A DNA stretch of 64,000 nucleotides, taken from Methanomassiliicoccales archaeon. Lineage in GTDB: Archaea > Thermoplasmatota > Thermoplasmata > Methanomassiliicoccales > UBA472. Where the stretch lies: contig DATJOX010000057.1 of NCBI GenBank assembly GCA_035506675.1, positions 17,748 through 81,747 on the forward strand. The letters run 5' to 3'. The notes under the pieces are model-generated. The model was not told the origin of the DNA, did no database searches, and saw only the letters and a program-made list of their open reading frames with translations. Shown one piece after another: positions 24,881-33,420 of this stretch (position 1 is the first letter of the stretch; the number at the start of each line of letters is the position of its first letter). The translations under genes and the position numbers were made by a program.

Positions 24881-27800
24881 TCAACTTGCAGGGGGTATGG
24901 CGACCACGACCGTGCACTCCGCTCTCTCCGCCACCCCGCGCTCCTTCTTGAACATATAGCCGCTCCGCGCCTCATCCCACTCGCCCTCGAGGATGATGAG
25001 GTCCACGTTCCTCTGCTTCGCGAAGAGCGCCACGTCCCTGCCGGACTCGCGCACTAGCACCACCATCGGCCGGTAGCGCCTGATCACCGCCCAGGTGGGC
25101 AGGGTATGGAAGACGCTCAGCTCGCGCTCCGTGTCCACGAGTGACTCGGGACGGTACACCGAGTAAAGGGGCACGATCGAGGGCATCTCCACGACCTTCG
25201 CGGCAACGATATCCACGCCCGGGAACGGCGCGCCTTCTGTCAGGGCCTGGGCGAGCTCGACCGGCTCTCCCTTGAGCCGCGTCAAAGCAGGGATGAGCAC
25301 ACGCGGCGCGCCTGTGAGCGGTATCGATGGGGCCTCCCAGTTACTGACAATGATGACCTTGCGCTCCCGGAATTCGTTAACCCAGGCGATCCTCGAGAGC
25401 GCGCGCCGCCTGCCCTCGAAGACTTCGCGAGCGGCGGGCACGAAGATGCGCGAGGCGCCAGAATCCTTCACCACTTCCCTGAGACTGACGGAGGTCGCGC
25501 GCCAGCCGCGTTCTCTACCAGCCACGCGGATATCCTGGATCTCGAACGGCACTTTCAGATGCCCAGCATGCTGCACGATCAGTCGCTCAAGATCGTCCAG
25601 GTTGTGCTGATCGGAGTCGTTGTCGATGACGCGCACGAACAACAGCCGTGAACCGGCGGACCTCGCCGAGTCGACCGCCACATGGACCAGGTTCACCTCG
25701 TTGCCAACGCCCCGCAGCACGACGACCGCGGGCGGTCCCTTCTCTTCGTACGGAGGGAGCTCCCTGTCGTAGCCGATCTCCACCGGGACCCCCGCGATCG
25801 GAGCGGCTGGGACAGGTGTGACCGGAACCGGAGGAAGCAAGTAGGCCCTCAGTATCAGCTTCCGGACCTCCTCCAGCCCGAAGAGGACCGGGGCGATCAG
25901 ATAGAGCACCAGGATGTCCTGTAGCGGGACTCCCGTCGCCCCGAAAGCCGAGCCGATGGGCGGGAAGTAGACCAGGATCAGCAGCAACCCGAAGGATGCC
26001 GCGACGGCAACGAGCAGCCACTTGTTCTTGGACAGGCTGACCGACAGCGAGGACTTCACGTTCGTGCGCATCGCGAAGACCACACCCAGTTGGCCGGCCA
26101 TGACCGCGGCCATGAAGATGGTGGTGCCCTGCTGGTAAGCCATCTGGGATGACACGGAGCCGAGCCCGAGGTGCCACCCGGCGCCTTGCCAGAGGTTGAA
26201 GCACCAATAGAGGGCGACCAACCCGGCGATGACCCCGAGGTAAGTCGAGCGGGCGAGCGCGCCCGAGCTGAAAAGGCGGACGGCCTTGCTCCGCGGGGCG
26301 CGTTCCATGATCCCCGGCTCCGGCGGCTCCACCGTAAGGGCCAGTGATGGTGGGATATCCATCATCAGGTCGATGGCGAGCACCTCGATGACCGTGAGCG
26401 GCAGCGGAACGCCGATCGTGACGAAAGCGATGAACGCGATGAGCTCGGCCCAGTTATGCGTGAAGACATAAGCGATGAACTTCCTCAGGTTGTCGAAGAC
26501 CGCCCTTCCCTGTTCGATGCCGTGCACGATCGAAGCGAAGTTGTCATCCAGGAGCACCATGTCCGAAGACTCGCGCGCGACGTCGGTGCCGGAAAGCCCC
26601 ATGGCGATGCCGATGTCCGCTTCCAACAGAGCCGGGGCGTCGTTCACTCCGTCCCCAGTCACCGCCACCGTCTCGCCCCTGTCGCGCAGCGCCTTCACGA
26701 TGCGCAGTTTCTGGTCTGGGGCGATGCGCGCGAACACCAGCTCCTTCTTCTCGAGCACCCGCCCGAGCTCCTCATCGCTCATCGCGGCGAGGCGGGACCC
26801 GCTCACCACCTCTCCCTTCGAAGTGATCAAGCCGATGCTCCTGGCGATCGCTTCAGCGGTGAGCTCGTGGTCTCCGGTGAGCATCAGTACTCGTATGCCG
26901 GCCGCCCTCGCCTCCCTTACAGCCTTCGCGCTCTCCGCCCGAGGCGGGTCCAGGATCGCGACCAGTCCGATGAAGGTCAGCTCCTTCTCAAGGGATTCAG
27001 CTTCGTAGGACGTAGGATCTGCCGGCAGAGCGCGCTCGGCGAGTGCAAGGACGCGATAGGCCTCGCGCGCATATTGATCCATGCGGTTCTTGACAACCCT
27101 TCTGATATCGTCTGTTAGCGGCACGACCGCACCGTTCCAGTATGCATAGGTGCTTCGTTCCAGCACGTCCGCTCCCGCGCCTTTCGTGTACGAAACGATG
27201 CGACCTTCTGGCTCCCGATGGACGCTCGTCATCATCTTGCGCTTGGATTCGAACGGCGCCAGGCCGATTCTCGGACTGCGAGAGAGCTGCTCCTTGTACT
27301 GCATGCCCGCCTTGGCGGCGAAGACAAGCAGCGCGGCCTCGGTGGAGTCTCCAATCGCGGTCCAGCGTGACTTTCTCGGATCTAGTGGTGGAACGACCGT
27401 GGCGGTATTGTCCAGGCAGGCAACGCGCATGAGCTGTAGCAGGTCTTCCGCGTCTCCTGCCTGCACCCGCCGGCCTTCGATCGTCACCGCGCCCTCTGGC
27501 TCGTACCCCTCGCCGCTGACCTCATAGTCCTTTCCCCCGATCCAGGCCCGACGCACGGTCATCTGGCCTTCGGTGATCGTTCCAGTCTTGTCGGAGCAGA
27601 TGACGGTACAGCTGCCGAGCGTCTCGACGGACGAGAGCCGCTTTACGACCATGTTCCGCTTTGACATCGTGAGCGAGCTAATGGCGAGAGCGAGAGTGAG
27701 GGTGACTTGGAAGCCTTCGGGTACGAGGGAGATCATCACCCCGATCATGAAAAGAAGGCTGGGGGCGAGCTCCAGTCCAAGGCCGAAATAGGCAATCAGA

Positions 27801-28684
27801 AGGAAGATGAGACCGACCGCGATCGCGACGATGAAGTTCATTCTCGCGGCACGGTTGATCTCAAGCTGCAAAGGGCTAGCTGGTTCCGCAGTAATCTGGG
27901 TGAGCTTGACTATGCGGCCGAATTCGGTCCGCTCCCCAGTGGCGAAGACGACCGCGGTCCCGGACCCTGATGCCACCGTCGTCCCAGCGAAGATTACGTT
28001 CGCGCAGTAGGCGAGCTCCTTGTGCGATGCGACCGTTGCGACCCCAGGCGCCCGGTGAACTGGCTCCGACTCTCCGGTCAGGGCGGAGTTGTCCACGGCC
28101 AGCTCGAAGCATTCGACGACGCGCGCGTCCGCAGGCACCTTGTCACCCGCCTCGAGCATGAGGATATCGCCTGGCACCACCTCCGCCACCTGCACTTGAA
28201 CGACCTCATTTGCTCGCTTGACCCTGGTGTTGGCAGGCACCAGCTCCTTTATCGCGCGCACCGCGCGCTCGGCACGGTACTCCTGGAAGAGGCTGAACAC
28301 GACGCTTATCAGAACAACGACCAAAATCGCGACGCCCATTCCGATCGACGTCGGATCGTTCGTGCTGAAGCCAGTAATGAAGGAGAGAGCGGCGGCTACG
28401 ACCAGAAGTACCGTGAATAGGTTCTTGATCTGCGCAATGAGGCTCTGGGAGAGGCGTCTCTTCCTTTCCGGAAGAACGTTGCGGCCGTATTTCGCTGCCC
28501 TCGCCTTCGCTTCATCCGGCGTCAGACCGGCCGAGCTCGTTTCGAGGCGCCCGTACAGCTCCTCAACGCTACATCCGAGGCACTTCATAGCCTCGGTGGC
28601 TTCCTCCTCGTTTCCCTCCGCCACGCTCTCGCCCCTTGGCGTCTGCGGCCCAGTGGTCGTGAACCCTTGGGGGATGGAGAGCAT
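24881..28684 (-). CDS. P-type cation ATPase (type II, P2C-like) with C-terminal USP-like extension
   Basis: LTGES, VPEG, DKTGT, GDGVND; M6 LAIDLMMD; about 285 extra C-terminal aa; start may lie slightly downstream. Confidence 0.92.
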   Translation of the reverse strand: MLSIPQGFTTTGPQTPRGESVAEGNEEEATEAMKCLGCSVEELYGRLETSSAGLTPDEAKARAAKYGRNVLPERKRRLSQSLIAQIKNLFTVLLVVAAALSFITGFSTNDPTSIGMGVAILVVVLISVVFSLFQEYRAERAVRAIKELVPANTRVKRANEVVQVQVAEVVPGDILMLEAGDKVPADARVVECFELAVDNSALTGESEPVHRAPGVATVASHKELAYCANVIFAGTTVASGSGTAVVFATGERTEFGRIVKLTQITAEPASPLQLEINRAARMNFIVAIAVGLIFLLIAYFGLGLELAPSLLFMIGVMISLVPEGFQVTLTLALAISSLTMSKRNMVVKRLSSVETLGSCTVICSDKTGTITEGQMTVRRAWIGGKDYEVSGEGYEPEGAVTIEGRRVQAGDAEDLLQLMRVACLDNTATVVPPLDPRKSRWTAIGDSTEAALLVFAAKAGMQYKEQLSRSPRIGLAPFESKRKMMTSVHREPEGRIVSYTKGAGADVLERSTYAYWNGAVVPLTDDIRRVVKNRMDQYAREAYRVLALAERALPADPTSYEAESLEKELTFIGLVAILDPPRAESAKAVREARAAGIRVLMLTGDHELTAEAIARSIGLITSKGEVVSGSRLAAMSDEELGRVLEKKELVFARIAPDQKLRIVKALRDRGETVAVTGDGVNDAPALLEADIGIAMGLSGTDVARESSDMVLLDDNFASIVHGIEQGRAVFDNLRKFIAYVFTHNWAELIAFIAFVTIGVPLPLTVIEVLAIDLMMDIPPSLALTVEPPEPGIMERAPRSKAVRLFSSGALARSTYLGVIAGLVALYWCFNLWQGAGWHLGLGSVSSQMAYQQGTTIFMAAVMAGQLGVVFAMRTNVKSSLSVSLSKNKWLLVAVAASFGLLLILVYFPPIGSAFGATGVPLQDILVLYLIAPVLFGLEEVRKLILRAYLLPPVPVTPVPAAPIAGVPVEIGYDRELPPYEEKGPPAVVVLRGVGNEVNLVHVAVDSARSAGSRLLFVRVIDNDSDQHNLDDLERLIVQHAGHLKVPFEIQDIRVAGRERGWRATSVSLREVVKDSGASRIFVPAAREVFEGRRRALSRIAWVNEFRERKVIIVSNWEAPSIPLTGAPRVLIPALTRLKGEPVELAQALTEGAPFPGVDIVAAKVVEMPSIVPLYSVYRPESLVDTERELSVFHTLPTWAVIRRYRPMVVLVRESGRDVALFAKQRNVDLIILEGEWDEARSGYMFKKERGVAERAECTVVVAIPPAS

Positions 28685-29281: not shown

Positions 29282-29662
29282 TTACTTCTTCCGCTTGCCA
29301 AAAAGCTTGCCTAGGCCGCGCTTCTCCTCGCCATCTTGCTTCGGCTCCGCAGGCTTCGGCGCCTCGACCGGCTTCTGCTCCTTCGCCTTCTCCTCCGGAA
29401 CCTCCATCTTCGGCGCTTCCGCCTTGGGCGCAGGTTTCGGGGACTCAAGTCCCGATTTCTTCGGTGCTTCCTTCAGGGGTTCCGGCATAGACCTTGGCGT
29501 CTCTTTCGGCTTTTCGGGGTTGGAGAGGCGCTTTGCAATCGACTCAAGCTCCTCGAGCGTGGACATCGCCAGGTCGGAGCCGCACCCGGGGCATTCCTCC
29601 TGCTTCGCGGGCACGATGCGCCCACAAACCGGGCACTCAACAGAATCGGCTGGTATGGACAT
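29282..29662 (-). CDS. Zinc-ribbon protein with K/E/P-rich low-complexity tail
   Basis: CPVCG..CPGCG followed by a PKE/APK-rich region; start ATG 29662 preferred. Confidence 0.7.
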   Translation of the reverse strand: MSIPADSVECPVCGRIVPAKQEECPGCGSDLAMSTLEELESIAKRLSNPEKPKETPRSMPEPLKEAPKKSGLESPKPAPKAEAPKMEVPEEKAKEQKPVEAPKPAEPKQDGEEKRGLGKLFGKRKK

Positions 29663-29809
29663 GCGCTGACGCCAGTCCAAACGAGCCCTCCCGATTTAAC
29701 CATTTTGGGAGCAGTATCAGTGTCGGAATTACTCAAATCTGGAATCTGGTCGCGCTCTTTATCAGGCACTTGTCACAAATCACCCGCATCGCACCGTCGG
29801 GGTGGGTTT

Positions 29810-31858
29810 GTGAGCGCCAAGATAAAGGAGGAGAAGCCTGAGAGATACGGTTGGAGCGGGGCGATCCTGGCGGCGCTCACACCGCTCCTCGTGATGATCA
29901 TCATCCCCGTCTTCATCATGTTCGCCGGCATCGAGTTCGGCAAGGCCGGGCCGCAGCTGGCATCCGAACTCGAGAGCCTAATCGTGATGCTCGTGGTGAT
30001 CGGCCTGCCGGCGGTCGTGGTCACGTTCGCAGCGCACTACTTTCGCAAGGGCTCGGTACCGAGGGTCGTCCTCGGCGTCGCAGAGGCGGTCACGGTCTTC
30101 CTCTACATCGCTCTTCTATTCTACTACCTCAATCTGCAAACCGTCTTCGGACTCCTGAGCTTCAACCCAGATCTGGACACTCTCTTTCTGGCCTTAATGT
30201 ACGCGGTTGTCCTGCTTGGCTGGGGATTCGTGGGCGATTTCTTCTCGAAGCGCCGAGCGTATCGCGCGACGATCGGCAGGCCTCTTGAGGCGAAGCCGAT
30301 GCCAATCGGGATCGCTCTAGACTTCTCGCCGCGGGCGGGTGACGCGAGGAAGGGACAACGCACAGCGGTTATCGAAGCCGCGGTGCTGGTAATCGTTCCC
30401 ATTCTGCTGCTCGTCCTCGTTCCAGCGATCGCCTCTTCGCAAGTCACCCCTCTGCCTGCCAACTTCGCTTCGCTCTTCACGATCTTCAACTCAATGGCGA
30501 GCGTCGTCCTCGTCATCGGCCTCATAGCCGTCCCGCTTGCCTGGCTCATGGGATTCTACCGTCCGGGGACGTCTACGCGTGCGCTGTTTTCGAGCGCGTT
30601 CGCAATCGCGCTCCTGGCTTACATCTGGTTCGTGCTCATGGGACACGGACTGAGCGACTGGCTCGCACAGCAGGGAATCTTCTTCGACTACAGCTTCATT
30701 GTCACGCTGCTGCTCGTCGTTCCGTTGTTCCGCGTCCTTGTCGCCGTCGGCGAGCTCATGGAGCAGCGCAAACCCTGGAAGCGCTCGTGGGGCATCGACG
30801 CTCCTGACCGTCCGATAAACACAGCCTCTGCGTTCCTCGATTTCAACCCGCGCACGGGCAGCATCGCCGAGGCCGCTCGGGCCGGAAGAAGGGCCTGGCT
30901 CGCGTGGCTGGTGCTCCCGTTCTTCCTCTTCAATCTGAGCTCGCAGACGATCGCGACCATTGCTAGTGTGGCAAACCGAGGCCCGCTCTCCATCGTGCTC
31001 GACAACATATCCTGGTCGCTGTTCACCATCGCCCTGGTCATCGTCGCGCTCAGCATGGTCTGGGGCTTCTATCCGAAGGGATCGTTCGGTCGCCTGATCT
31101 TCGGGGCCGCGAAAGCGATCTTCATCGTGCTGTTCGTGGTCGCGATCTTTCATGGCGGTTCGCTCGGCAACGAGATCTACGGCACCGGGTTCAAGGTGGA
31201 CCTCGACCCCGTTGTGGGATTGTTCGTCATCCTGGCGGCCATGTTCTTCATCGTTCCGTTCGCAGAGCTGGCCGACAATCGCCGCGCCTGGAAGAAGCGC
31301 TTCGGGCGCTCACTGAAGAAGCTGAGCGCGCCGAAGCAAGGAGCGATGACAGATTTCCGGCTCCGATACGCGCGCTTCGTTGAGGGGGCGAGGGAGTCTA
31401 GGCGGGGGTACATGAGCTATGTCGTGATCCCCCAGCTCTTCATCGTGATCATGAGGGGCGCGTTCCTGAGCGTGAACAACGTCATCCTGAACCAGGCGGC
31501 CGCGAACCTCACCGATCTGAGCACGCCGGTGCTGCTCGTGGGCGTCACAGTGGTGGTCGTGCAGTTCTTCCGCGGGATGTGGGGACCGGGAGCGTTCTCG
31601 CGCTTGGCGTTCGGGTGGATCGCAGCCTTGCTGTCCGTCGTGTGGGTCTACGTATTCCTGTCTGGACTGCTGAACACTAGCGTCACGCTGCAGCTCCCGG
31701 GCACTCCGATCAACATCGATCTCTCGCCATACCTGAACATCGTGCTGATAATATTCATCGTCCTGTCGCTGCTGACGGGCGTGAGGTACACGTTCGAGTT
31801 CCTCTTCAACCGGGCGAGATGGGCGGAGAACCGGGAGAGCCTCGTGGTCTACGAATGA
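29810..31858 (+). CDS. Polytopic membrane protein built of four ~171-aa repeats
   Basis: GTG 29810 (MSAKIKEEK); repeating (G/H)(F/Y/M)x(R/P/G)xG(S/T/A)xxR motif at 30035, 30551, 31064 and 31574. The track N-terminal extension is antisense of the neighbouring gene. Confidence 0.8.
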   Translation: MSAKIKEEKPERYGWSGAILAALTPLLVMIIIPVFIMFAGIEFGKAGPQLASELESLIVMLVVIGLPAVVVTFAAHYFRKGSVPRVVLGVAEAVTVFLYIALLFYYLNLQTVFGLLSFNPDLDTLFLALMYAVVLLGWGFVGDFFSKRRAYRATIGRPLEAKPMPIGIALDFSPRAGDARKGQRTAVIEAAVLVIVPILLLVLVPAIASSQVTPLPANFASLFTIFNSMASVVLVIGLIAVPLAWLMGFYRPGTSTRALFSSAFAIALLAYIWFVLMGHGLSDWLAQQGIFFDYSFIVTLLLVVPLFRVLVAVGELMEQRKPWKRSWGIDAPDRPINTASAFLDFNPRTGSIAEAARAGRRAWLAWLVLPFFLFNLSSQTIATIASVANRGPLSIVLDNISWSLFTIALVIVALSMVWGFYPKGSFGRLIFGAAKAIFIVLFVVAIFHGGSLGNEIYGTGFKVDLDPVVGLFVILAAMFFIVPFAELADNRRAWKKRFGRSLKKLSAPKQGAMTDFRLRYARFVEGARESRRGYMSYVVIPQLFIVIMRGAFLSVNNVILNQAAANLTDLSTPVLLVGVTVVVVQFFRGMWGPGAFSRLAFGWIAALLSVVWVYVFLSGLLNTSVTLQLPGTPINIDLSPYLNIVLIIFIVLSLLTGVRYTFEFLFNRARWAENRESLVVYE

Positions 31859-32527
31859 TCAGCTGAGCTCGATGCCCTTTGGTCCGATGCGGAACGTCAT
31901 CGCGTCGATGGGCGCGGCGGTGAAGCGCATCTTCACGAACTCGAGGTAGCGCTCCTTGCGGTCGACATACTGGATGTCGCGTCTGCTGAGGCGCACGATG
32001 GTGTCGAAAGCTTGCTCGGCGACATCCCCGAAGCGGTGCACCATGCCCTCGTCGCAGGTCGCGACCATCGTAACGCCGCCGGCGAGCGCACTGCCCAGAA
32101 GATAGTCGATCTGCTGTCGGAAGTGCGAGATGCTCATCTCTAGCGCGAGCGCCCCCAGGTTGTCGATGACGAGGGCATCGACGTTCCCGAGCGCCTCGAC
32201 AATACCGGTGAAGCCGACCTCGCGCCCGTCCATGAACGGCGAGGCGCCTCTCGCGTCGCTGACCGTCATGAAGTGCACGCGCTTCTCCGCTTCGTAGCTG
32301 TCGAAGGGCCATCCGAATGCGGATGCCGCTTCGAGGAGATCCTCGCGGCGTTCCCGCACCGCTATGAACAAGACCCGCCTGCCCTCTGCGGCACAGGCTT
32401 GCGCGAACTGCAACGAGAGGATGGTCTTCCCCGACCCGGAGCGCCCGCTGATGAGGACGCTCCTTCCCCTCGGATATCCTCCGACCGCTGCGTCGATGCC
32501 GGCCACCCCGGTGCTCACCCGCTCCAT
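31859..32527 (-). CDS. KaiC/RAD55-family ATPase
   Basis: MERVSTGVAGID, GRSGSGKT Walker A, LVIDN, LEFVKMR. Confidence 0.88.
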   Translation of the reverse strand: MERVSTGVAGIDAAVGGYPRGRSVLISGRSGSGKTILSLQFAQACAAEGRRVLFIAVRERREDLLEAASAFGWPFDSYEAEKRVHFMTVSDARGASPFMDGREVGFTGIVEALGNVDALVIDNLGALALEMSISHFRQQIDYLLGSALAGGVTMVATCDEGMVHRFGDVAEQAFDTIVRLSRRDIQYVDRKERYLEFVKMRFTAAPIDAMTFRIGPKGIELS

Positions 32528-32694
32528 TCCTCGCCTCTCAGCTTGTATGGCCTGATGGAATAGATAACATTGCGCTCCGCGCTCCAAGATAGCACGGCTC
32601 CAGTTGCTCGAGGGTTCGGATTCAAGCACCCTCACGGAATCAATAAATAAGGTCTCGGTACTAGGCCGAAGCACAGTTCAAGGGGTGCAAAGAG

Positions 32695-33420
32695 ATGGGA
32701 ATTAGTATCGCAATCTGCGAGGTCGACTCGGACGCCTCGCTCTGCAAGGTCAACAAGACGACTTACGTGAAGGTATACCTGCCGAACATCAAGGGGCACG
32801 AACAGTACGCGGAATTCGACATGATCATCGCTGGCCCAGAGGCAAAGAAGACGATGGGGGCGGAGTGGGACGCGTTCGTGAAGCGCAACCGCATTGACCC
32901 TGAGGCCGAGGCGATCTACGTAGAGAAGATCAAGAACGAGGCGGACCGAAAGAAACTGGAGCCATTCGCGACCCGAAACTACACTGGCTGGGTGTTTGTG
33001 GACAAAGCGCCCGCGGACGTGGCGCGCGAGATCATCTCGAAATCCTCGCCCGACGACCGCCTCACTGGCTGGGACATGGTGTCATTTGAGGAGATGGGCG
33101 AGACCTGCAAGAAGTGTGGGCTGTCCTGGGACAAGGGGCGCGGATGCATCGGGGACTTCGGACCGGAGGCGTCCAAGCTGCCGGAGATCGCAGCGAAGAA
33201 CGGGCTTTCGATCATCGCGAACGTGGTCGAGTCCTCGAAGACCAAGAAGACATTCTCGACCGAGGACGCGAACGAGCTGCTCCGCGAGGTCAAGGTACTG
33301 CGGGAAAAGCTTCCGGCGGAAGGCAAGGCGATGGTCCACCGCTACTCTGGCGTGCTCGACAGGCTCGAGGCGATGGCCAACATAGCATTGAAATACAGGA
33401 CGAAGTTCTATTTCGTCTAA
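32695..33420 (+). CDS. Hypothetical protein with Cys cluster
   Basis: Coding-like codon use; CKKCGLSWDKGRGC; TAATG-coupled to the PadR gene. Confidence 0.75.
   Translation: MGISIAICEVDSDASLCKVNKTTYVKVYLPNIKGHEQYAEFDMIIAGPEAKKTMGAEWDAFVKRNRIDPEAEAIYVEKIKNEADRKKLEPFATRNYTGWVFVDKAPADVAREIISKSSPDDRLTGWDMVSFEEMGETCKKCGLSWDKGRGCIGDFGPEASKLPEIAAKNGLSIIANVVESSKTKKTFSTEDANELLREVKVLREKLPAEGKAMVHRYSGVLDRLEAMANIALKYRTKFYFV

Follow-up and report, generated by a model that had tools for sequence, protein, structure and literature searches.

A four-repeat membrane protein of a peat methanogen and the new Thermoplasmatota tetraspan family to which it belongs

What could a membrane protein built from four copies of the same small unit, with no recognizable relatives, be doing in an archaeal cell, and how did it come to have four copies? 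This question is raised by a 64,000-nucleotide stretch of contig DATJOX010000057.1 (hereafter the window, meaning the whole stretch analyzed), which comes from a Methanomassiliicoccales archaeon, a peat methanogen. On its forward strand the window carries gene X (29810-31858, stop codon at 31856-31858), which encodes a 682-residue protein (P0001) with 16 transmembrane (TM) helices. An initial annotation, made from the sequence alone, had described an unannotated protein of four tandem repeats of about 171 residues and four TM helices each, had recognized no family and had likened the protein to pseudo-tetrameric channels or transporters. Here we find that X belongs to a new family, as yet unnamed, for which neither fold nor function is known. 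As the best explanation, which we hold tentatively and at somewhat less than an even chance, X would have arisen by fusion of a new Thermoplasmatota tetraspan subunit into a single chain; the subunit would act as an intramembrane assembly of four units and would ancestrally have been paired with an extracellular protein, designated B275. Both the four-unit packing and any activity of X are what we infer from the evidence described below.

The reading frame containing X is open from 29336 to 31858 on the forward strand, and its upstream part overlaps a zinc-ribbon gene on the opposite strand. The start of X is most likely the GTG at 29810, because a candidate Shine-Dalgarno-like sequence, GGGGTGGG (29799-29806, forward strand), can be read 3 nt upstream of it and because P0002, a metagenomic protein with 95% identity, has its first residue at the same place. 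X is the sole copy of the family in its genome.

Four homologous repeats in one chain

All four repeats lie head to tail on the forward strand within the single gene. Repeat 1 (residues 1-172, 29810-30325) has lost the N-terminal [DE]F of the unit, as elsewhere in this genus, and carries the motif HYFRKGSVPR (30035-30064) in the cytoplasmic loop between its second and third helices (TM2 and TM3). Repeat 2 (residues 173-343, 30326-30838) starts with LDFSPR, has GFYRPGTSTR (30551-30580) in the same loop and ends with GELMEQRKPW. Repeat 3 (residues 344-513, 30839-31348), which is the nearest of the four to the family consensus, starts with LDFNPR, has GFYPKGSFGR (31064-31093) in the loop and ends with AELADNRRAW, and repeat 4 (residues 514-682, 31349-31855) starts with TDFRLR, has GMWGPGAFSR (31574-31603) and ends with FEFLFNRARW. 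The cores of the loop motifs (HYFRKG, GFYRPG, GFYPKG and GMWGPG) begin at nucleotides 30035, 30551, 31064 and 31574, which reproduces the spacing of 516, 513 and 510 nt given in the initial annotation, and the linker between repeats is constant in length, with about 20-21 residues from the W/Y of one repeat to the DF of the next.

The repeats are far apart in sequence, with pairwise identities of 17-25%. Nevertheless, hydropathy along the chain shows an autocorrelation of 0.88 at a lag of 172 residues, and per-repeat profiles built from 12 orthologues match one another in hhalign with probabilities of 97-99.5% and E values between 1.8e-11 and 5e-23. Such cross-matches are far beyond chance, so the repeats are truly homologous, and the proposal of four tandem units with about 16 helices holds. 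A single-repeat profile of the family also matches all four of them (E 2e-33 to 5e-38). At the DNA level no repeat at about 513 nt was found in the gene, apart from short matches due to codon bias, and the duplications are therefore ancient.

The AlphaFold2 model of X, computed from a 12-sequence alignment, contains 16 long helices, four in each unit (mean predicted local distance difference test score [pLDDT] 75, predicted TM-score [pTM] 0.72). When repeat 3 was modeled alone, the scores were higher (pLDDT 89.4, pTM 0.83), and each repeat model consists of four long TM helices and one short helix in an outer loop. Lysines and arginines in the loops of X number 20 inside versus 3 outside, and all four of its NxS/T sequons fall on the low-charge, outer side. 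The charge bias and the placement of the sequons therefore indicate an N-in/C-in topology for every unit. The outer loops are 3-18 residues long and contain no cysteine. X is thus nearly wholly intramembrane and has almost no soluble mass, and its action must accordingly lie within the membrane.

The failure to recognize a family was borne out by database searches, both for the whole protein and for the single repeat. Pfam gave no match to whole X and NCBIfam only one match at noise level (TIGR00956, E 0.69, 7.4 bits). With five homologues and 49 members of a single-repeat alignment as queries, Pfam returned nothing beyond sub-threshold noise (MerC, COX1, DUF2101 and Tmemb_14). Two of these were considered as possible relatives and rejected, namely MerC (4 of 49 members, E of at least 0.008, 17 bits against a cutoff of 27.6) and TMEM14 (Tmemb_14, 2 of 49 members); both lie below the gathering threshold and represent noise for hydrophobic proteins. 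Profile searches of PDB sequences with the four-repeat and single-repeat alignments gave nothing credible, the best matches being ChRmine (E 0.09), designed coiled coils and the ryanodine receptor (RyR, E 0.1). In Foldseek searches of PDB and BFVD, the full model of X had no match with an E value below 0.4 or a query TM-score (TMq) above 0.25, and no channel in PDB exceeded a TMq of 0.2. The single-repeat model reached a TMq of at most 0.36 in PDB, with synaptogyrin and V-ATPase c subunits (E > 2). Taking the two PDB searches together, the best TMq values spanned 0.17-0.36 with every E value above 1, and BFVD yielded no match. The homologue in Ca. Methanomassiliicoccus intestinalis Issoire-Mx1 (AGN26704.1 / WP_020449229.1) is annotated as a hypothetical protein, and literature searches by topic and by accession retrieved no work on the family and, within the library searched, none citing this homologue.

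One to four repeats at a conserved locus

The family is small, as an exhaustive HMMER search of 1.84 billion representative proteins yielded no more than 122 clusters. The family is confined to Thermoplasmatota and is near-universal in Methanomassiliicoccales, where the four-repeat profile matches 124 of 201 sampled genomes (33 of 37 genera) and most of the remaining ones are picked up by the single-repeat profile, which is more sensitive. Outside the order, the latter profile finds single-repeat genes in scattered Thermoplasmatota lineages (59 of 301 genomes). Most genomes have one X-family gene each, and the family reaches gut and rumen species, including the cultured M. luminyensis and Ca. 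M. intestinalis. Many members carry variable low-complexity cytoplasmic tails. Several single-repeat homologues (P0099, P0127, P0130 and P0132) carry a fused zinc ribbon as well as long tails rich in P/Q or K/E.

Single-repeat homologues, a search for which had been suggested along with the initial annotation, make up the largest group. Segmentation of 167 family sequences with the single-repeat hidden Markov model gave 90 proteins with one repeat, 26 with two, 14 with three and 34 with four, and none with more than four. Across the order the gene occupies a conserved locus, HD-SepF-PUA-(zinc ribbon)-B275-X-(KaiC-like)-A241-ABC transporter, in which bracketed genes are optional and B275 and X lie on the other strand. 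The number of repeats that X has at this one locus varies between lineages from one to four, and the repeats have therefore multiplied in place. In a tree of 287 units, all last repeats (the second of two, third of three and fourth of four) form one clade with a support of 0.89, and repeat 4 of X falls in this distinct group. The first repeats of four-repeat proteins form another clade, while repeats 2 and 3 are sister clades whose nearest relative is the first repeat of two-repeat proteins. The tree therefore argues for stepwise growth with positional orthology and not for doubling of a two-repeat gene. Fusion from one repeat to two also took place independently within a Methanomethylophilaceae-like family (f7; P0082, P0100 and G058).

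The three-repeat genes are informative as to whether four is a functional total. Of the eight whose context can be read, five are immediately preceded by a separate single-repeat gene (a 1+3 arrangement), at five distinct loci; a further apparent three-repeat protein, P0021, is cut by a contig end and is not counted among the eight. Upstream of P0028, P0032, P0029 and P0035, which come from distinct metagenomic loci, the single-repeat gene encodes 163-216 residues and either overlaps the three-repeat gene by 4 nt or lies 64-74 nt away from it, and in genome G069 a single-repeat open reading frame overlaps the start of the three-repeat gene by 26 nt in another frame. The stand-alone genes are found at L060:3432-3926, L062:575-1066, L065:1904-2398, L066:1630-2280 and L027:2780-3376. 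In the unit tree they group with the first repeats of four-repeat proteins and are therefore retained fission products. Three-repeat forms had been taken as an argument against a four-unit assembly, and that argument was weakened once five of the eight proved to be 1+3. Judged from these sequences, the cap at four repeats and the 1+3 pairs favor a functional total of four units, without proving it.

Two side observations concern the same loci. The 26-nt overlap in different frames at L027 (2780-3376) could instead reflect a frameshifted four-repeat gene or an assembly error. The C-termini of P0028 and P0032 (L060 and L062) carry an extra conserved soluble domain of about 80 residues (…MASYMAITKKPASKIIERAMEHFG…VDIETSQFDSKVREFLARL).

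The existence of one-, two-, three- and four-repeat forms, together with their stepwise growth, also bears on a different possibility, namely that the units are autonomous four-TM bundles of an open-ended modular scaffold, arranged in a line or a lattice with no set number, as tetraspan organizers are. Such units would hold the glycoprotein B275 and stiffen or organize the membrane of cells without a prominent wall. The very hydrophobic helices, conserved residues resembling a cytoplasmic clasp, the confident folding of a single unit on its own (pLDDT 89), the variable low-complexity cytoplasmic tails of many members and synaptogyrin as a weak best fold neighbor are all consistent with this possibility. 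However, the repeat number stops at four in 167 sequences, the fourth unit stays next door after gene fission, X is kept where B275 has been lost, and the TM2-TM3 loop motif is conserved more strongly than a passive scaffold would need. We consider an open-ended scaffold quite improbable.

According to the explanation that we favor, four diverged copies of an N-in/C-in four-helix subunit would have been fused into the one chain of X, the repeats having accumulated stepwise in place at one conserved locus. The units would most likely pack side by side, as a homotetramer where the gene has one repeat, as a dimer where it has two and as a monomer in the case of X. Several points weigh against this explanation. 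Three lone three-repeat genes (P0015, P0024 and P0023, at loci L059, L063 and L064) have no single-repeat neighbor within 4-5 kb, and that of P0023 occupies the ancestral locus, between B275 on its upstream side and A241 on its downstream side; a strict total of four would hold for these genes only if the fourth unit were encoded elsewhere. Growth was stepwise rather than by doubling of the whole gene. When X is compared with the nearest genomes, the ratio of nonsynonymous to synonymous substitution rates (dN/dS) has reached saturation, with dS at about 1 or above, and is hence uninformative. Finally, no homologue has been studied, which makes the function of X pure inference.

A partner gene upstream of X and the genomic surroundings

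A gene linked to the family across the phylum is B275, which encodes a protein of about 275 residues. In 16 loci from within the order it is the immediate upstream neighbor of X and is read in the same direction; 15 of these show an overlap of 4-25 nt between the two genes, and L025 has a 4-nt gap. B275 again sits immediately upstream in 12 of 12 loci from other classes and families of the phylum, where no other neighbor is conserved. Examples are found at L022:3171-3998 and in 27 other loci, such as L014, L025, L047 and L064:3160-3999. The B275-X cassette also duplicates as a unit. This arrangement indicates that B275 is translationally coupled to the four-TM gene, in a two-gene operon that is the ancestral state and from which B275 was lost in the genus of the window.

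The B275 protein begins with a hydrophobic anchor, and the rest of it is rich in beta structure. Its NxS/T sequons number 72 versus 32 expected from shuffling. B275 is a membrane-anchored extracellular protein, probably with a beta-sandwich fold. Searches of Pfam, NCBIfam and PDB with B275 found no relative, only weak hints of CARDB, DUF2393 and DUF7490. In some lineages B275 has a third domain, giving forms of about 390 residues.

No B275 homologue was found in the genome analyzed here or in its genus. In the window, the place that B275 takes in relatives is occupied by a divergent gene for a zinc-ribbon and low-complexity protein of 132 residues (29282-29680, reverse strand), and this genome thus has only the X half of the B275-X module. 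X occurs without B275 in the genus of the window (g1), in g6, in g13 (Ca. M. intestinalis) and in f7; the reverse, B275 without X, was seen in one sampled genome only (G071). X is therefore the core of the module and B275 a dispensable accessory. Within the favored explanation, the ancestral subunit would have been co-translated with a membrane-anchored, glycosylated, probably beta-sandwich extracellular B275, with X as the indispensable membrane core and B275 as an outer accessory that could be dispensed with and was lost in this genus.

Several genomes (G069 with seven matches, G053, G099, G111, G048 and G078) contain paralogous B275-X cassettes with differing repeat numbers. In genomes of g18, for example G078, a one-repeat gene is found at the ancestral locus and a four-repeat gene elsewhere. 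One B275-X cassette may have been transferred between families.

Downstream of X in the window lies A241 (32695-33420, forward strand), a gene for a 241-residue, cysteine-containing cytoplasmic protein with no family in Pfam, NCBIfam or PDB. A241 is the downstream neighbor of X in 17 loci of the order and in two further loci (L056 and L064), and it forms part of an order-wide context. The protein has a strongly conserved C-x2-C...SWDKGRGCIG-x-FGP motif. Between X and A241 is a convergent gene for a KaiC-like ATPase (31859-32674, reverse strand), whose stop codon abuts that of X with zero spacer (31856-31861), so that any terminator must sit within coding region. Three genes upstream of X is a P-type ATPase gene with a long C-terminal extension (24881-28684, reverse strand); its adjacency to X is retained only in the closest relatives (L004). 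An operon function deduced from these window neighbors (P-type ATPase, PUA, KaiC-like, PadR, CBS and ThiF) was considered and rejected, because their conservation stops at the order, they are encoded on other strands and the g6 clade lacks them.

Conserved positions and possible activities

If the neighbors of X in the window do not point to a function, which part of the unit might carry one? Conservation was scored over the 287 units and in the alignment of 49 single-repeat sequences (A3). The top conserved positions over the 287 units are the [DE]F start, two glycines in the N-terminal amphipathic segment, a proline in TM1, G-x-P in TM2, the turn G-[FY]-Y-P-K-G-S-x-x-R between TM2 and TM3 (G in 95% and R in 92%), the F-G that opens TM3, an aromatic residue in TM3, an aspartate in the outer loop before TM4 and the E-x4-R-x2-W that ends TM4. 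In alignment A3 the glycine of the loop motif is invariant and the arginine is present in at least 90% of sequences. The linker motif DF.PR/DF.LR and the repeat end (D/E)...R..(W/Y) picked out in the initial annotation are therefore real and among the most conserved positions of the family. The repeats of X show the [DE]F start, the TM1 proline, the turn and the E-x4-R-x2-W end that define the unit, save for repeat 1, which lacks the [DE]F. All but four of the top conserved positions sit at the cytoplasmic face of the membrane. Over the 287 units the mid-membrane region has no conserved polar residue, and the helices are strongly hydrophobic; neither a re-entrant loop nor a selectivity motif was seen among the conserved positions, and the unit has no helix with repeated arginines of the voltage-sensor type. 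The sole conserved acid within a TM helix, E142, is five residues before the cytoplasmic R147.

These positions bear directly on the likeness to pseudo-tetrameric channels or transporters that had been proposed for X. In such a protein, the repeats would surround a central pore, with rings of D120 (before TM4) and E142 (at the inner end) at its mouths and with the G-x-P and proline kinks acting as gating hinges; B275 would be an auxiliary subunit comparable to the Ig-like beta subunits of Nav channels, and the whole could serve cells without a wall as a release valve opened by tension. The favored total of four units with retained 1+3 splits, a model with a defined global fold (pTM 0.72) and the almost wholly intramembrane nature of X are consistent with a channel, as are the conserved TM1 proline, TM2 G-x-P, aspartate before TM4, glutamate at the end of TM4 and N-terminal amphipathic helix. 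The gene is also single-copy and near-universal in the order. Yet a conserved mid-membrane polar residue, a re-entrant loop or a selectivity motif is missing, the conserved motifs cluster at the cytoplasmic face, neither sequence nor fold resembles any channel or transporter, and lone three-repeat genes exist. Of the original likeness, the pseudo-tetramer therefore stands as plausible, given the cap at four and the 1+3 pairs, while Foldseek gave it no counterpart among proteins of this kind, and a channel or transporter is unlikely, a minority possibility and not the best-supported one. A bolder version would make the family a new class of archaeal pore, new in fold as well, such as a release valve gated by tension or by a partner in wall-poor Thermoplasmatota, whose genomes would keep the homotetramer, tandem-dimer, 1+3 and single-chain stages together with a gain-and-loss series of an Ig-like extracellular auxiliary subunit. 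This version we regard as distinctly unlikely.

The near-invariant G...R of the loop, which resembles an anion-binding loop at the cytoplasmic membrane boundary, also raises the possibility of an interfacial lipid handler. The glycine-rich K/S/R turn would bind the phosphate head group of an inner-leaflet lipid, for example a polyprenyl-phosphate-linked glycan, and each unit would be a flippase-like or enzyme-like module serving the glycosylation of surface proteins such as B275, which is rich in sequons. Small translocators of lipid-linked sugars, such as GtrA and ArnE/F, are similar in size to the four-TM unit. However, the searches matched neither GtrA nor the SMR-type families, among which ArnE/F would fall, nor any glycosyltransferase family, and GtrB appeared only as a noise-level Foldseek match. 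Moreover, the neighborhood contains no conserved glycosylation genes, and X persists where B275 has been lost. A lipid handler is accordingly highly improbable.

Taken by itself, the conservation pattern would fit a hydrophobic-pore channel with a cytoplasmic gate, a membrane-organizing core or an interfacial lipid-binding module, and it does not discriminate among them. In the four-unit assembly that we favor, the working part of each unit would be the cluster at the cytoplasmic face, formed by the N-terminal [DE]F amphipathic helix, the TM2-TM3 turn and the E-x4-R-x2-W. As to activity, we lean toward either a gated conduit or the membrane-organizing core of a cell-envelope complex, a choice between the two not being possible.

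Comparison with known systems places X close to none of them by sequence. Proteolipid (c/K) subunits of archaeal A-type ATPases occur as single, double or triple hairpins and up to one chain of 13 hairpins. X resembles them in that a small, oligomerizing helical membrane subunit is encoded singly or as several fused copies depending on the archaeon, giving a series of covalent pseudo-oligomers. V-ATPase c is among the weak best fold neighbors of one repeat (TMq 0.36, root-mean-square deviation 8.5 Å, E 4.3), with a TM-score below 0.5. Unlike these proteolipids (ATP-synt_C), to which there is no sequence match, the X unit has four helices and is not a hairpin, the gene lies outside any ATPase operon, and the conserved acid is at the cytoplasmic end of TM4, whereas the essential carboxylate of c/K subunits is in mid-membrane. 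Pseudo-tetrameric cation channels (Nav/Cav with 4x6TM, two-pore channels with 2x6TM, and TMEM175) are similar in that their repeats total four, relatives have fewer per chain and a single-pass extracellular auxiliary subunit is optional. They differ in having six helices per repeat instead of four, and X has neither voltage-sensor arginines nor a pore loop; Ion_trans gave no significant match (E 7.3 on one homologue) and TMEM175 a Foldseek TMq of 0.12 (E 3.4).

Eukaryotic tetraspan organizers (tetraspanins and MARVEL/synaptogyrin) share with the family a four-TM, N-in/C-in subunit with short loops and, in many members, variable cytoplasmic tails. Where such organizers have single-pass Ig-like partners, the X family pairs with the anchored, glycosylated and probably beta-sandwich B275. 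Unlike tetraspanins, the family lacks a large cysteine-rich second loop, and the matches (MARVEL in 1 of 49 members at E 0.028, synaptogyrin with a TMq of 0.36 and E 2.2) speak for analogy, not homology. Piezo proteins are built from tandem four-helix N-in/C-in units, each of which follows a short amphipathic helix at the cytoplasmic interface, and their nine units form an open curved blade. X is likewise a tandem of N-in/C-in four-helix units, each preceded by an amphipathic helix, but it has a set of four, there is no sequence similarity and no Piezo chain was among the Foldseek matches listed.

In summary, the X family is a core, near-universal and single-copy membrane component of a whole methanogen order. 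It provides an unusually complete natural series from an oligomeric membrane protein to a single chain, with one to four repeats at an orthologous locus, independent fusions and 1+3 fissions, and this allows stoichiometry, interface conservation and subunit specialization to be compared directly. The conserved pairing with the extracellular glycoprotein B275 points to an unstudied cell-envelope module in archaea without a conventional wall.

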